DNA of 59,928 bases, taken from NCBI GenBank assembly GCA_003171065.1, contig PMXQ01000047.1, positions 3,587 through 63,514 on the forward strand. The letters are read 5' to 3'. The notes under the pieces were generated by a model that made no database searches, was not told where the DNA came from, and saw only the letters and a program-made list of their open reading frames with translations. Numbering within the stretch: the first letter of the stretch is position 1; every line of letters begins with the position of its first letter. Source of the DNA: Chloroflexota bacterium. GTDB taxonomy: Bacteria > Chloroflexota > Limnocylindria > Limnocylindrales > CSP1-4. Position numbers and translations under genes: made by a program. Shown here in pieces: positions 19,787 through 26,840 of this stretch.

Positions 19787-19816
19787 TTGACACGCGCCAG
19801 TTCGGCTTTCTATCCT
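19787..19816 (+). promoter_or_regulatory. Sigma70 promoter TTGACA-18-TATCCT
   Basis: Consensus match; supports the GTG 19861 start. Confidence 0.65.
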
Positions 19817-19860
19817 ACGCGCCGTCGGTCGGGGGTCGACTGGGGATAGAGGAGTTGCGG

Positions 19861-22800
19861 GTGTCAGTCGAGCCCGGGACCGGCGATCGCGTCGCCGGCG
19901 ATGCCGAGTACGTCCGGCCGAGCTTCCCGCTGCGCCCCGGCAAAGTCCAGCGGCCACTTCTGCCCCCCGAGACGCTCCGGCGCGACCGCCTCTTCGCCTG
20001 GCTCGAGGCCCGGGCCAGTCGCCGGGTCGTCTACGTGGTCGCAGAGGCAGGCTTCGGCAAGACGACCCTTGTCGCCGATTTCCTCCGCCGTTCGCGGGTT
20101 CGAACTTTCTGGTATCGGTTGGACGAGGGCGACACCGACGGCCTGGTCTTCCTTCGCTACCTGGTTGCCGCGTGCCAGGTCGTTGACCCCAGACTGCTGC
20201 AGCGATCCGCAGCTCTCCTGTCCGAATCGGCGGCCGAACCGACTCGGGAAGAGACGGTCCTGCGGACGCTCCTCGCCGAGATGGATTGCCTTGGCGAGGT
20301 TCCGTCGGCGATCGTTCTAGACGACTTCCACGTGGCCGAGGACGTACCGGAGATTGGGGCGGTGGTCGAGCGTCTCATCGCCCGGTCACCCGCCCAGCTC
20401 ACCCTGATCCTGGCGAGCAGGCGAACCCCAAACCTGTCCGCGGCGGCTCTGCGCGTCCGCGGCGAACTCGCCGAGCTGGGACGCGAAGAGCTTCGGTTCG
20501 ATGAAGCGGAAACCGACCGGCTCTTTCGCGAGTCCTATCGTCAGCCGCTCGAACCCGACGTTCTGCATGACTTGCAGGCGCGCACAGAGGGCTGGGCGGC
20601 ATCGTTGCAGCTGGTCAAGACGGCCGTCGACGGCCGATCGACCGCCCAGGTGCGCGCCTTCGTTCAATCCCTGAGCGGCGCTGAAGGCGACCTATACGAC
20701 TACCTTGCGGAAGAGGTGGTCGGCGAGCTGAAGGCTGACCTGCGCGGCTTCCTCATGCGAGTCGCGCTCCTCGAGGAAATCGACCCGGACATCGCCGCGG
20801 TGGCAGCCGACGTTCCCGTCGTGGGAGCGCGGCGACTCCTTGGCCACGCCCAGCGACTCGGGCTCCTGTCACGAGGGGCCGGGGCGGTCGCGTCGTGGCG
20901 ACTTCACCCCCTCGTGCGGGAGTTCTTGCTCGCCCGGCTCGAGGCAGAAGTAGGGCAGGCAGGGATCACCGACCTTCATCGCGACCTGGCCTCCGCCCTT
21001 GAACCGCAGTCGTGGCGCCTCGCCGCCCGCCATTGGGCCGCGGCCGGCGACGCGGATCAGGTCCGCCGCATCGTCTGCTCCGCCGTCCCCACGATCATCG
21101 GCACCGGCGACTTCGCCGCGGCCGAGGAACTGATCACCCGCTTTCCCGACCTCAACCCAAACCCCTGGTACGACATCCTTCGAGCCAGGATGAGATCAGC
21201 TGTTGGTCGGTACGACGAGGCCCTGGAGCTGGCGCTCAAGGCTGCGAACAATGACCTGACCGGAGCAGGCGGCGATTCCTCCCTCGCGCTCGCGAATGCG
21301 CTGAACCTCCTGCATTACGGGGTGGAGATGCAAGATCCCCAGCTCCGCGCGAACGCGCTTCATCAGCTCGTCGGATCCAACGACTCTGAGCTTGCCGCGA
21401 TTGCCCGAGCCACCCAGGCAATCATGGACTCCTCTTGGAGCGGAAGCTTGGATGAGGCCCGGCGGCTGGTTCTCGAGACCGCACGACTCAGCGAAGAACG
21501 GGGACACCGGCACCACGAGGCAATTGCATGGATCAACCTCGCGAATTTGGAGAGGGCTCGTGGCGATGCGGCAGCAGCCGTGGAGGCAGGCACAGCAGCG
21601 CTCCGCTGCACGGCATCTCCGGGCAACGAGAGCGATCGCCGGGCAGCTCATATGAACACGGCGAAGGGACTCGCCCACCTGGGTAGATGGGATCTGGCCC
21701 AGATACACATGGACGCCGCCGTGGGGGACAACCAGGAGTGGATAGAGCCCATGGTTATCGGCGAGTGCGCCGAGTTGCACGCCATGTACGGAGACCCAAG
21801 CCGAGCGAGTCAGATTCTGGCGCGAGCCTTTGCCGAGGATGAACATCGGCGCGGAGATTCCCTCTGCCGCCATGTGGCCGCACGGCTAACGCTCCTGGAT
21901 GGGAACCTGGCGCACGCCAGGGAACTGCTCGATGCGGCCACTGGCCCCACCTTCGAAGCGGGCTTCCGAAGCTCGTGGCTCGCCCTGGATGTCGCGATTC
22001 GGGCTTATGAGAGCGTTCGAGACCCATCATTGATGCCCTCTCTCGAGGAGGCCGTTCGGTTCACCGAGCATCAAAAGGCGTGGTTCTGGTGGAAGACGAT
22101 CCGTTTGACCAAAGCTCTCGTATCGAGCAGCGCTGAGTTGGCCCTGTTCCTCCGCTCGCTGGAGCCCGCCGACTCGGCCTATCTGTCCATACAGGCGGAG
22201 CTCGTGGTCAGGCGCCTCGCAGACCTCGATGGGGCCGGCTTCGCAATCGTCAGACAGGAGGCAACGCAACGCCCCGAACGATGGCGCTGGGCCCTCCGGC
22301 AGCTGCTTTCCAACCAGACCGCCAGAGCGGGAGACCTCAGGCGATCGGCCGAGCTCCTGGACCTGGTCGGGGACGCGAACGACATCAAGCTGCTGCGAGG
22401 GCTCGCCAAGAAGAAGAGCCTGCGGATCCCAGATGCCGGTCTTGTCCTGACGCGGCGGCTCGCCCCGCCGGCTTTCATAGACGACCTCGGTCGTGTGACG
22501 GTACACGTTGGCGACCGGTTACTTCCCGGGACAGAGATTCGCAAGAAGGTGCTGTCACTCCTGACCTTCCTGCTGACCCGCCCGCAGTTCACGGCATCGC
22601 GCGAGCAAGTTGTCGAGGCGCTTTGGCCGCAGATGGAGCCGGAGGCAGGAGCCAACTCCCTCAACCAGACGTCGTACTTCCTGCGTCAGGTTTTCGAACC
22701 CACGACGACGGAAGATGCGACCGCCGGATACCTCAACAGTCGTGCGGACCTGATCTGGCTGGATCCGGAGTTGGTACACAGCCGGAGCTCCGACTGCCTG

Positions 22801-25007: not shown

Positions 25008-25010
25008 CAG

Positions 25011-26840
25011 GTGCCCGCCCTCGGGGTACTCCTCGGGTTTGGCCTCGGTCTGGCCGCCGGCGGGCGGCTGGACAACCTGCTCGACGTCCGGCTGCGCTGG
25101 TGGCCGGTGCTGCTCATTGCGGCCGGGGCGCGCTTTGGGCTAGATGCCGCCCTCGCCGCGGGCGGCATTCCGGACGCCGTGCGGATGTGGCTGGTCCTGG
25201 TCGCGTACGTGCTGCTCACGGCCATGCTGCTGGCCAACCGGAACCTGCCCGGGCTGACGGCCGCCGCGCTCGGCACCGTGGCCAACGGGATCGCCATCGT
25301 CGTCAACGGCGGTTGGATGCCGGTCTGGCAGCCCAGCCTGGCAGCCGCCGGCTTCGATTCGACCGCCGTGCATTCGAGCTTCCACGTCCTGCTGACCGGC
25401 CCGATGGACGCCGGTTTCTTCGCCCACGGCGGTCCGCTGGCCGACGTCATCCCCGTCCCGATCCCGATAATCCAGTCCGTCGCCTCCGTCGGCGACCTGC
25501 TGCTCGGAGCGGGCCTGGCCTTCTTCGTCTTCGCCGCGGTCGTTCGGGCGCCAGTGCTTGTCTCTGTCTCGGTCGGGTCGGCTCGAATGGGCGCGCTGCG
25601 CCATCCGTACGTCCGGCTTGCCACCAACGGCCCGTTCTCGGCCATGTGGCTGGCGCAGGTCATCAGCTCGCTCGGAGACCGAGTCCATCAGATCGCGCTC
25701 GTCTTCCTGGTCGCGCGCGCCACCAACGGGTCGCCGCTGGCGCTCGGCCTGGTCTTCGCCGCGATGACGATCCCGACTTCCCTCGTCGGCCCGCTGGCCG
25801 GAGCGCTCGTCGATCGCTGGAATCGCAAATGGGTGATGGTCGGCTCAGACCTGGTTCGAGCCGGGCTGGTCTTCGCCATTCCGATCGTTTCGGGGCTGCA
25901 CATCAGCCTGGTCGTCGGCCTGGTCTTCCTGATCGCGGTCGCTTCGTCGTTCTTCCGCCCCGCAAGGGCGGCTGCACTGCCGCAGGTGGTCCCGGATGAG
26001 GACCTGCTTACGGCCAACTCGGCGATGTGGGTGGCCGACACGGTCAGCGACCTGGCGGGCTACGGCCTGGGCGGGCTCTTCGTGGCGTTCCTGGGATCGG
26101 CGCTGTCGCTGGCGTTCTGGATCGACGGGGCGAGCTATCTCGCATCGGCGGCGCTGGTGGCGGCGGTGGTGATCCCGCGAATCGTTCCGGCGGGGGGCGG
26201 TGAGGCCGGGGCGGGCCCGGCTGGAGCGGTCGCCTCGCTGGCGGCCGATCTCGTGGCGGGTTGGCGGTTCCTGCGCGCCGAGACGGTCCTGTTCGCGACC
26301 ACGGTCCAGGCCGCGATCGCGGAGTACGGACTCGGGGCGTTGATGGCGCTCTCCCCGCTGTTCGTGGCAGCGCTGCCGCTGGGCAGGCTGGACGCGCCCA
26401 CGGCATACGGCTTCTTCGAGATGTCGATGGGCGTTGGGCTCCTGGGCGGCGGCGTGGTCATCGGAGCCGTCGCGACGCGCATTCCCAAGGGGCCGGCGAT
26501 CGTGACCGGGTTCACGGCGCTGGGCGTGTCCCTGATTCTCTTCTCGGTGACCGGCAGCCTGTGGCTGGCACTGGTACTGGCGGCGGTCGTCGGCCTCGCC
26601 AACGTCGTCTTCGTCGTCCCGAGCCAGACCATCTTCCAGCAGCGCACTCCGGACGAGATGCTGGGGCGAGTGGTCGCCATCCGCCTCGCACTGGTGAACG
26701 CGATGCTCGCCGTTTCGATGGTCACGAGCGGGCTCTTTGCCCAGATCTTCGGCCTCGATGTCGTCCTGGCGGGGTGCGGCATCCTCGCGACGGCCGCCGG
26801 TCTGGCCGGGCTCGCTTTCCGCGCCATCCGCGAGGCCTGA
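25011..26840 (+). CDS. DUF5317-like membrane domain fused to an MFS transporter
   Basis: First ~180 aa carry GG.L..L, N..AI..NGG.MPV, L.D.I and S.GD; the remainder is an MFS (W.AQ.IS.LGD, GALVDRWNRK..M..SD, LGRV). Confidence 0.82.
   Translation: MPALGVLLGFGLGLAAGGRLDNLLDVRLRWWPVLLIAAGARFGLDAALAAGGIPDAVRMWLVLVAYVLLTAMLLANRNLPGLTAAALGTVANGIAIVVNGGWMPVWQPSLAAAGFDSTAVHSSFHVLLTGPMDAGFFAHGGPLADVIPVPIPIIQSVASVGDLLLGAGLAFFVFAAVVRAPVLVSVSVGSARMGALRHPYVRLATNGPFSAMWLAQVISSLGDRVHQIALVFLVARATNGSPLALGLVFAAMTIPTSLVGPLAGALVDRWNRKWVMVGSDLVRAGLVFAIPIVSGLHISLVVGLVFLIAVASSFFRPARAAALPQVVPDEDLLTANSAMWVADTVSDLAGYGLGGLFVAFLGSALSLAFWIDGASYLASAALVAAVVIPRIVPAGGGEAGAGPAGAVASLAADLVAGWRFLRAETVLFATTVQAAIAEYGLGALMALSPLFVAALPLGRLDAPTAYGFFEMSMGVGLLGGGVVIGAVATRIPKGPAIVTGFTALGVSLILFSVTGSLWLALVLAAVVGLANVVFVVPSQTIFQQRTPDEMLGRVVAIRLALVNAMLAVSMVTSGLFAQIFGLDVVLAGCGILATAAGLAGLAFRAIREA

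Follow-up and report, generated by a model that had tools for sequence, protein, structure and literature searches.

Several described systems resemble parts of the locus considered here, which lies on the plus strand of a 59,928-nt stretch of DNA (the window; contig PMXQ01000047.1, C121 in our numbering) and comprises four co-oriented genes at 19735-26840, encoding a STAND (signal transduction ATPase with numerous domains) regulator, a 29-aa peptide (open reading frame 2, ORF2), a MASE9-like HD-GYP protein, and a fusion of DUF5317 to a major facilitator superfamily (MFS) transporter. The leader upstream of ORF2 was compared with the c-di-GMP-II riboswitch class (RF01786; c-di-GMP, cyclic dimeric guanosine monophosphate), for which our literature search returned only passing mentions in Actinobacteria. 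It is like that class in its full-length match, in the covariation of P1-P3 and the pseudoknot, and in the terminator that overlaps P1 in relatives, but unlike it in that the window copy scores 29 bits without a terminator and in that two mini-ORFs precede the enzyme gene. A 2026 paper (PMC13724677) described small membrane-associated proteins of Clostridioides difficile whose genes follow class I c-di-GMP riboswitches, and the likeness, as far as its available text goes, lies in un- or poorly annotated hydrophobic small proteins directly downstream of c-di-GMP riboswitches, some of them multicopy. In the same text, however, these proteins have 58 aa and a C-terminal hydrophobic helix, follow a class I OFF switch, act on sporulation, and reportedly lack homologues outside C. 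difficile, whereas the present locus has ORFs of 29 and ~10 codons, an N-terminal signal-peptide-like hydrophobic part, a class II ON anatomy, and linkage to HD-GYP and DUF5317-MFS genes. Riboswitch-linked small proteins are already known as a concept; the present family and wiring differ. On the enzyme side, MASE9 was defined by Galperin and Chou, and the available part of that source gives HdgA as its sole studied member (10.1101/2021.11.05.467447); our literature search found one domain-centred MASE9 paper, with a single experimentally characterised protein in its available text. The MASE9-HD-GYP proteins TM1467 of Thermotoga maritima and HdgA of Streptomyces venezuelae resemble the window protein in their polytopic N-terminal membrane domain and complete HD-GYP domain with HHExxDGxGYP, but the available texts mention no riboswitch, upstream micro-ORF, or DUF5317 partner (10.1101/2021.11.05.467447, PMC6205966), and the word riboswitch is absent from that of the Streptomyces hdgA paper (PMC6205966). 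For DUF5317, the full-text literature search found no paper.

According to the available text of PMC10075063, RRNPP systems (Rap-Phr, Rgg-SHP, PlcR-PapR, and AimR-AimP) combine a tetratricopeptide repeat (TPR) receptor of 250-500 aa with an adjoining propeptide of 10-100 aa, and Actinomycetota signals are typically small molecules. As far as these systems are described there, the locus is like them in that the gene of a TPR-containing regulator adjoins a propeptide gene, whose product runs from basic N-terminal residues through a hydrophobic region to a short C-terminal part that is conserved; ORF2, with 29 aa and 305 nt past the STAND stop codon, falls within the propeptide size and adjacency. 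The regulator, with 1148 aa and a TPR_12 match below the cut-off, falls outside the receptor size, and it is unlike RRNPP receptors in being a STAND ATPase with a winged helix-turn-helix (wHTH) and BTAD, in being dispensable in three congeners, and in having no oligopeptide importer nearby. STAND activators of the MalT/AfsR kind are closer in that MalT aligns over ~560 residues and in their TPR and BTAD domains, but the wHTH and BTAD of the window regulator are C-terminal, and the MalT equivalog cut-off was missed. The DNA-binding part of AfsR is N-terminal, and MalT has a LuxR-type HTH. Finally, agr (AgrD/AgrB/AgrC) and ComQXP also place a small precursor gene beside polytopic membrane proteins, and the original prediction for this DNA had likened the cluster to them; the analogy fails, because the cluster holds no AgrB/ComQ-like enzyme, histidine kinase, or response regulator, and its neighbours encode no such processing enzyme or kinase either.

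The genome that carries the window (3.0 Mb in 151 contigs, 88% complete, G+C ~68%) belongs to a lineage taken here as actinobacterial (Actinomycetota), mostly uncultured and poorly studied. Orthologous loci were examined in 18 species of its genus, in 20 loci from ~20 other genera of its family, in 20 loci from three more families of the class (14 from one, hereafter the second family, and 6 from two others), and in 3 loci of yet other families within the phylum, the last being those readable upstream of a MASE9-type HD-GYP gene adjoining DUF5317. All four genes of the original prediction, including the 29-aa ORF, are present where it had placed them; it had missed two features between the STAND gene and ORF2, namely, a c-di-GMP-II aptamer and a first mini-ORF (upstream ORF 1, uORF1). 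The STAND, HD-GYP, and DUF5317-MFS genes were adjacent in 20/20 loci of other genera and in most second-family loci, and the order promoter, aptamer, uORF1, ORF2, MASE9-HD-GYP, and DUF5317-MFS was kept in two families within the class, and the core of ORF2, HD-GYP, and DUF5317(-MFS) extends to further families.

ORF2 (23486-23575) encodes MRQRIVSILLVVGAGLLAAASGGASYRPF, which has a basic N-terminus, a hydrophobic core of 12-16 residues, G-G-A, and a five-residue tail (SYRPF in the window). Because 142 ORFs of 25 aa or more lie within or across the ends of the 13-kb span 17000-30000 (~68% GC), a 29-codon ORF is unremarkable alone, and the reality of ORF2 follows from its conservation and not from its mere presence. 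The original prediction had called the tiny ORF signal-peptide-like and had proposed a search for conserved small ORFs in homologous loci; an equivalent (~29 aa, basic and then hydrophobic) was indeed found upstream of the HD-GYP gene in 59/62 loci. Within the genus it occupied the same place in 18/18 loci and was intact in 17, with an internal stop in L029, which may be real decay or a metagenome assembly error. The genus peptides end in ASYRPF-stop (16/18), VSYRPF (L037), or ASYRSF (L038), and under this invariant tail the codons switch family: Ser is TCC, AGT, or AGC; Arg is AGG, CGG, AGA, or CGA; all four Pro codons occur; and the stop is TAG or TGA. Codon-family switches under invariant residues indicate selection on the ORF2 peptide. 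Other genera of the family have an ORF2 of the same length in 18/20 loci, ending ...LAGGAS-[LVFIM]-[KR]-[GVP]-[FL], and throughout the family ORF2 keeps to 29 codons without insertions or deletions. The three further families of the class have ORF2 in 20/20 loci, ending ...AGGAS-x-K-G-W in one and ...GGGAG-x-x-G-aromatic in another. A similar ORF was also seen in all of the more distant loci of the phylum (3/3): in L176 (G506:C28, oriented ~1090-1354), from a lower-GC genome, two identical tandem copies end ...VMAAGADSRWA and have their own AGGAGG each, and L177 and L178 end ...LNAAANTKWL and ...LASGADIQVGW. The peptide matched no Pfam or NCBIfam model, and across 201 family genomes the ASYRPF-stop pattern occurred in the window's genus (g1) only, two matches in other genera being rejected as chance since they end in TGG, which the pattern allowed. 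Taken together, sequence conservation identifies ORF2 as a real, conserved, protein-coding gene. The GGTGA before its ATG overlaps the Trp-stop of uORF1. The conserved spacer that separates it from the HD-GYP gene in the genus alignment (23576-23636) contains GTAC-TCTCTCCCATAGCC, a variable hairpin, TAGATT (-10-like), and a GGAG Shine-Dalgarno sequence.

Conservation of the intergenic DNA reaches well past ORF2. Upstream of both mini-ORFs, sequence reading and the genus alignment gave an inferred promoter (23205-23244), whose -35 TTGACC (23216-23221), 17-nt spacer, and -10 TAACGT (23239-23244) are conserved, with AGTAC/GTAC boxes flanking the -35 in the window. In L084, of another genus, the equivalent promoter is TTGACC-18-TATAGT (3994-4023), which has 10 of 12 consensus positions and passes a strict scan. 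The "own promoter" that the original prediction gave to ORF2 is thus replaced by a conserved promoter-like element ~240 nt upstream, ahead of the riboswitch. The aptamer (23287-23371) matched RF01786 over the full model length with 29 bits (E 3.9e-4; gathering score 53.5); by its structure it is of the c-di-GMP-II class, and being below the curated score it is classed as a diverged member. Leaders from other genera scored 68.3, 63.7, 63.5, 63.4, and 53.6 bits (5/7 passing), with one at 46.9 and one unmatched; those of the second family scored 56.4, 55.9, and 54.2 bits (3/4 passing), with the fourth at 43.5; and the distant L176, in which the match immediately precedes the small ORFs, scored 52.7 bits. 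Three loci of the two other families of the class had no RF01786 match.

In an alignment of 13 leaders, the Rfam structure paired in 78.6% of cells compared with 28-39% with slid partners, double changes occurred in 18/26 pairs, and 0/500 shuffles reached any of five measures. P3 was 93.3% paired and the pseudoknot 100%, with one compensatory G-C to U-A exchange, and the genus-only alignment likewise paired in 78.8% of cells; the P1/P2/P3 helices and the GCAC/GUGC pseudoknot are upheld by this covariation. A custom model (R1) gave 65.9 bits on the window aptamer, whose sequence was in its training set, and found a single match per locus, always in the same leader, in 51/62 sources, 13 of which are training sequences. 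By group, it matched 18/19 genus leaders (the missing one being cut by a contig end), 18/20 of other genera, 14/14 of the second family, 0/6 of the two further families, and 1/3 distant loci. In L084, the aptamer (4065-4148) is followed by an intrinsic terminator (4136-4159) whose 5' arm is the P1 3' strand; because a ligand-stabilised P1 and this terminator are mutually exclusive, the anatomy in relatives is that of an ON switch. The genus is rich in c-di-GMP-II-like aptamers, with up to 20 matches per genome (E <= 1), and among the genus RF01786 matches listed exactly one lies above the Rfam cut-off. Five fall in the window's genome, the other four at C27:2204-2285, C101:8162-8224, C10:28037-28121, and C63:51686-51757, and three of these four precede ORFs that start like lipoproteins or secreted proteins. 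A sister family with ~1.1-Mb genomes had an RF01786-type match in 1/16 genomes (E 0.4).

Between aptamer and ORF2 lies uORF1 (23394-23480; 28 codons), recognized by ORF call and conservation, with AGGAG at 23380-23384, a GTG start at 23394, and a TGA stop at 23478-23480. The window peptide reads MSLDQNTRPW followed by two copies of LPDQNTRPW, and Tandem Repeats Finder located within it a perfect repeat of 27 bp x 2.8 (23402-23477; 100% matches, score 152), which is in frame with a 9-residue unit. In relatives uORF1 usually has ~10 codons of the form M-x-[PAS]-E-x-x-x-[KR]-x-[WF]-stop (33/37 family loci), with an Arg codon that varies among orthologues (CGA, AGA, AGG, CGG), and in the second family it reads M-A-R-x-x-[ILV]-K-G-W-stop (14/14 loci), whereas the families without a riboswitch have it in 0/6 loci. 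The shortest versions are MKGW-stop (L098) and MSIKGW-stop (L097). Units are expanded in frame in the window (x3), L021 (x2), L022 and L023 (x3), and L033 (x2); L022 and L023, which lack the STAND gene, combine the threefold uORF1 with a variant ORF2 ending ...AAEASYRPF. We dropped the reading of the 27-bp repeat as direct-repeat sites for the STAND winged helix, modeled on the direct-repeat binding sites of SARP-like regulators, because the repeat is the coding body of uORF1; a single unit in most relatives and the in-frame nature of every expansion also counter it. The uORF1 copies of L079, L091, and L093 have a disturbed frame or no start codon, which may be decay or an assembly error of metagenome-assembled genomes.

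The C-termini of uORF1 and ORF2 share one kind of motif, [KR]-x-[WF]-stop, and the two tails are alike by lineage: both are K-G-W in the second family, K-S-W in L136, and K-G-F in L080; they are K-G-W and K-G-F, respectively, in most family genera, K-G-F and K-G-L in L081, and R-x-W and R-P-F in the window's genus. Agreeing tails in L130 and L131 differ synonymously (CTT/CTC, AAG/AAA, GGC/GGT), and because matching residues often use different codons the likeness is one of peptides; no probability was attached to this co-variation, since the genomes are related. Immediately before uORF1, a hairpin CAGAAG-AGGGCAC-CTTCTG, ~20 nt upstream of the ATG, is invariant in the second family (L129-L142, 14/14). 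Its GGGCAC, the same hexamer as in the aptamer loop that forms the pseudoknot, also precedes the uORF1 start in L080, L081, L083, and L087 and is absent from the window's genus. This hairpin might compete for the GUGC partner and thereby tie ligand binding to uORF1 translation.

The enzyme gene (23637-25007) encodes a 456-aa protein with HD_5 at residues 243-408 (135.5 bits). HHEWFNGSGYP is invariant in 15 orthologues, which agrees with the intact catalytic motifs claimed by the original prediction and fits HHExx[DN]GxGYP, the motif given for the HD-GYP domain in the available part of 10.1101/2021.11.05.467447. The membrane domain matched MASE9 (PF20972) over residues 52-224 with 23.5 bits, just short of the Pfam cut-off of 24.3. 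The gene probably starts at TTG 23643 and not at GTG 23637, because the TTG is aligned with the orthologues' ATG and its spacing to GGAG is more favourable. Complex prediction with the MASE9 region (1-240), the DUF5317 domain, and ORF2 as partner gave scores of 0.56, 0.05, and 0.15 against a mark of 0.32 and was unused as evidence.

Only 3 bp past the HD-GYP stop codon starts the gene for the 609-aa fusion (25011-26840), in which DUF5317 (PF17248) occupies residues 28-174 (nt ~25092-25532; 71.3 bits, cut-off 25) and the MFS part residues ~208-604 (MFS_3 91.3 bits and MFS_1 87 bits, both above Pfam cut-offs). Against TIGR00900 the MFS part scored 198.9 bits (cut-off 319.6), and named Mef/Tap/EntS-like models all fell far below their cut-offs. 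The fusion is conserved in genus, family, and class; fused or standalone, DUF5317 occurs in 97/101 family genomes and 87/301 phylum genomes, tallies to which a few genomes with an unpublished flag contribute. Invariant in DUF5317 are N76, P80, G81, G88, N92, N99, G101, M103, P104, D145, S159, G161, D162, and G168. The AlphaFold model (pLDDT 93.4) has five helices with a beta-rich insert between helices 4 and 5; this insert, which bears most invariant residues, is predicted to face outward, on the side where the ORF2 tail would lie, because MFS transporters begin in the cytoplasm and the fused one should do so as well. Foldseek against the PDB gave no DUF5317 match at E <= 0.001 (best E 3.2, TM 0.26), with 13 weak matches and no protease among them, and a profile search of PDB sequences gave 0 matches. 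A reading of DUF5317 as a GxGD-type aspartyl protease, considered for its invariant D145 and S-x-G-D162, is accordingly unsupported by fold or sequence search. Standalone DUF5317 genes stand beside double-GAF proteins (L049 and L053, cut by the locus end) or GGDEF-EAL (L062) in 3/5 loci, and, judged by eye, L049 may have the beginning of a GGDEF domain at its cut end. In other families, DUF5317 lies beside HD-GYP genes in 11/26 loci (1.5-kb flank). These standalone paralogues, together with the lack of a PDB fold match, leave the processing enzyme that the original prediction saw in DUF5317 without support. The locus does have a link to c-di-GMP.

The regulator gene (19735-23181) was defined by ORF call, Pfam, and NCBIfam. 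In its product, BTAD scored above the cut-off (39.5 bits), and AAA_16, Trans_reg_C, and TPR_12 all scored below theirs; the NCBIfam MalT model matched residues 66-623 with 232.7 bits, and since this is under the equivalog cut-off of 537, the protein is a MalT relative and not MalT. A MalT-like NTPase/sensor region with TPR is followed by a winged helix (935-991) and BTAD (1042-1144), a domain layout of the STAND type. Orthologues lie upstream of the module in 13/18 genus loci and in 20/20 loci of other genera, so the regulator's membership in the cluster, as originally predicted, holds; its role as an obligatory receptor does not, because three congeners, G006 (L022), G005 (L023), and G010 (L035), whose genomes are 93-94% complete, lack the orthologue and retain the riboswitch, both mini-ORFs, HD-GYP, and DUF5317-MFS. 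The only STAND-related protein of G005 is a 29%-identical paralogue. With the window STAND as query, none was detected adjoining the module in six loci of two further families. Since the STAND gene is dispensable in these three congeners, the core module is ORF2, HD-GYP, and DUF5317(-MFS), and the riboswitch with uORF1, and the STAND gene, are added regulatory layers.

Taken together, we lean, with modest confidence, towards a c-di-GMP-responsive operon beside a MalT-like STAND activator, with an ON switch and an ORF2-derived pentapeptide that acts on the membrane modules. The promoter would drive a leader with the c-di-GMP-II aptamer, followed by uORF1, ORF2, HD-GYP, and DUF5317-MFS, and binding of c-di-GMP to the aptamer would in most lineages probably prevent termination. 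The phosphodiesterase that degrades c-di-GMP, and with it the two peptides, would then be made when c-di-GMP is high, which would be a negative feedback. The original prediction had c-di-GMP as the output, which the HD-GYP protein bears out; as output alone it does not stand, since the riboswitch makes c-di-GMP an input too. By its sequence, ORF2 has the layout of a Sec signal peptide that carries a site for signal peptidase I, for which the -3/-1 rule calls for small residues. Less certainly, ORF2 may therefore be a Sec-type signal peptide plus five residues, and signal peptidase I may cut after small-x-Ala, freeing the pentapeptide (here SYRPF) on the extracytoplasmic side of the membrane. 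It is reasonable to suppose that the ORF2 product would be inserted or exported and its tail presented or released outside, where, acting on the MASE9 domain or on the predicted extracytoplasmic beta-region of DUF5317, it would tune c-di-GMP hydrolysis or transport. uORF1 would supply a cytoplasmic peptide whose C-terminus is of the same type, and may be a same-tail ligand or antagonist, an MFS substrate, or a purely cis-acting leader. A bolder version, which we consider unlikely, is a peptide signaling system of Actinomycetota with c-di-GMP as both input and output, in which a riboswitch-gated precursor would give a secreted pentapeptide (SYRPF; S-hydrophobic-K/R-G-F/W in relatives) sensed by the MASE9-HD-GYP/DUF5317-MFS pair that sets the c-di-GMP level, with the uORF1 10-mer as second ligand or antagonist.

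Several observations weigh against the operon model. At the RNA level, RF01786 matches at the orthologous place in the genus (15/18 loci) are all below the cut-off (27.9-50.3 bits), and the folding energy of the window leader (23252-23400) does not improve on that of shuffled sequences (z -0.04). A terminator of the L084 type is missing in the window and its genus by genus alignment and by strict scan of the window, and the strict-consensus scan of 23150-23700 found no sigma-70-like promoter and no terminator; the aptamer copy of the window could thus be weakened or rewired. The -10-like element before the HD-GYP gene, together with a strong terminator hairpin after the small ORF of L178, suggests that some lineages may transcribe the small genes as a unit of their own. 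At the peptide level, exactly five residues follow the last [AGS]-x-A motif in 54/60 ORF2 peptides, but the motif was found with our own regular expression, which fixes the Ala at -1 by construction, so that the constant distance is the observation. The ORF2 tail is invariant across the genus, unlike diversifying Firmicutes pheromones, and in L132-L134 the tails disagree (uORF1 K-G-W, ORF2 L-R-G-L). Peat metatranscriptome contigs from two runs of two studies are identical to the window at 23261-23431, 23265-23416, and 23402-23458, with left ends that fall ~10-15 nt past the transcription start predicted from the inferred -10, but as assembled contigs they are blind to ends and strand, and the libraries may contain DNA. 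The exact contigs over the aptamer and the uORF1 start give a weak hint of abundant leader RNA; none covers the HD-GYP gene, the other pieces being partial and 90-95% alike, and two further RNA runs (X3, X4) gave no exact contig; stretches without cover are not taken as evidence.

The step from ORF2 to a released pentapeptide has its main competitor in an uncleaved product. ORF2 could be a stable single-pass micro-protein that modulates MASE9-HD-GYP or DUF5317-MFS, with uORF1 as its translational leader, in the manner of small membrane regulators such as MgrB for PhoQ, AcrZ for AcrB, and KdpF. We regard this as possible, if somewhat doubtful. It would agree with the constant length of 29 codons and with the presence of ORF2 beside HD-GYP and DUF5317(-MFS) wherever examined, including 6/6 loci without riboswitch, uORF1, and STAND, and it has a precedent, in the available text, in the small membrane-associated proteins behind C. 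difficile c-di-GMP riboswitches (PMC13724677). However, the short hydrophobic stretch (~12-16 residues) with small-x-Ala at a fixed distance from the end is more like a signal peptide than an anchor, and the tandem copies in L176, each with its own Shine-Dalgarno sequence, would be commoner for precursor genes than for stoichiometric subunits. Neither mini-peptide would matter if both ORFs acted purely in cis, the C-terminal [KR]-x-[WF]-stop slowing termination and so coupling uORF1-ORF2-HD-GYP translation or protecting the transcript, with functionless peptides. The reduction of uORF1 to MKGW-stop or MSIKGW-stop, with the C-terminus alone kept, its confinement to loci with the riboswitch, and the location of the second-family K-G-W-stop codons in a hairpin that stays paired through changes in its 3' arm all fit that idea, but an arrest motif has no need of the hydrophobic core, basic N-terminus, and small-x-Ala of ORF2, and two families have ORF2 without uORF1 or riboswitch and do not keep the basic residue of the tail; on balance we find it quite improbable. 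A force sensor of the MifM/SecM kind was ruled out, because the hydrophobic segment abuts the stop codon and a 29-residue chain is still within the ribosome tunnel at termination.

The circuit of the original prediction, likened to agr or ComQXP, with DUF5317 cleaving the precursor, the MFS exporting the product, and the HD-GYP membrane domain, the STAND TPR, or both as sensor, would agree with the conserved cluster and with a signal-peptide-like precursor that has a conserved tail; the MFS of the efflux type (DHA3, with Mef/Tap/EntS-like matches below cut-off), the two invariant Asp with the invariant Asn and Ser of DUF5317 in a region predicted outside the membrane, and the tandem multiplication of uORF1 in three lineages, as in some pheromone precursors, would also suit it. 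Yet a signal-peptidase-type site would make a dedicated protease unnecessary, and the DUF5317 model matches no solved fold and no PDB sequence. Standalone DUF5317 adjoins cytoplasmic c-di-GMP enzymes, and tblastn with the window ORF2 against those loci, a weak search because of the short query, detected no small ORF there. Domain annotation of the neighbouring genes revealed no peptide importer, peptidase, or kinase, AgrB/ComQ homologues are absent from the cluster, and the STAND receptor is absent from three congeners that retain everything else. We hold the circuit to be very unlikely.

Further features lie around the operon. GTAC-containing boxes surround the promoter and the 5' end of the leader (window 23205-23230, L084 4040-4060, and L129-L142), for example, as CTAGTAC-N4-GTACTAG in several genera and, in L129 and L130, as pairs or triplets of GTACT boxes with a spacing of ~10-11 nt, and in the window's family they recur just past the ORF2 stop codon (window 23576-23595); they might serve as operators or form a 5' RNA hairpin. 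The same strand carries, immediately before the STAND gene, an ECF (extracytoplasmic function) sigma factor gene and an overlapping 241-aa ORF that follows it (together 18176-19413), the latter without a Pfam match and possibly encoding an anti-sigma factor; PCMT methyltransferase and glycosyltransferase genes lie downstream of the cluster.

The operon would be a clear case of a c-di-GMP riboswitch driving a c-di-GMP phosphodiesterase gene, in a lineage rich in this riboswitch class, and it ties two unannotated, widely conserved micro-ORFs to MASE9-HD-GYP enzymes and DUF5317. If the 29-aa product is indeed a ligand or subunit of these modules, the input that has long been sought for a MASE-type sensor would be identified. 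A secreted tail would make the product a ribosomal peptide signal, in a phylum whose signals, as far as the available text of PMC10075063 goes, are typically small molecules.

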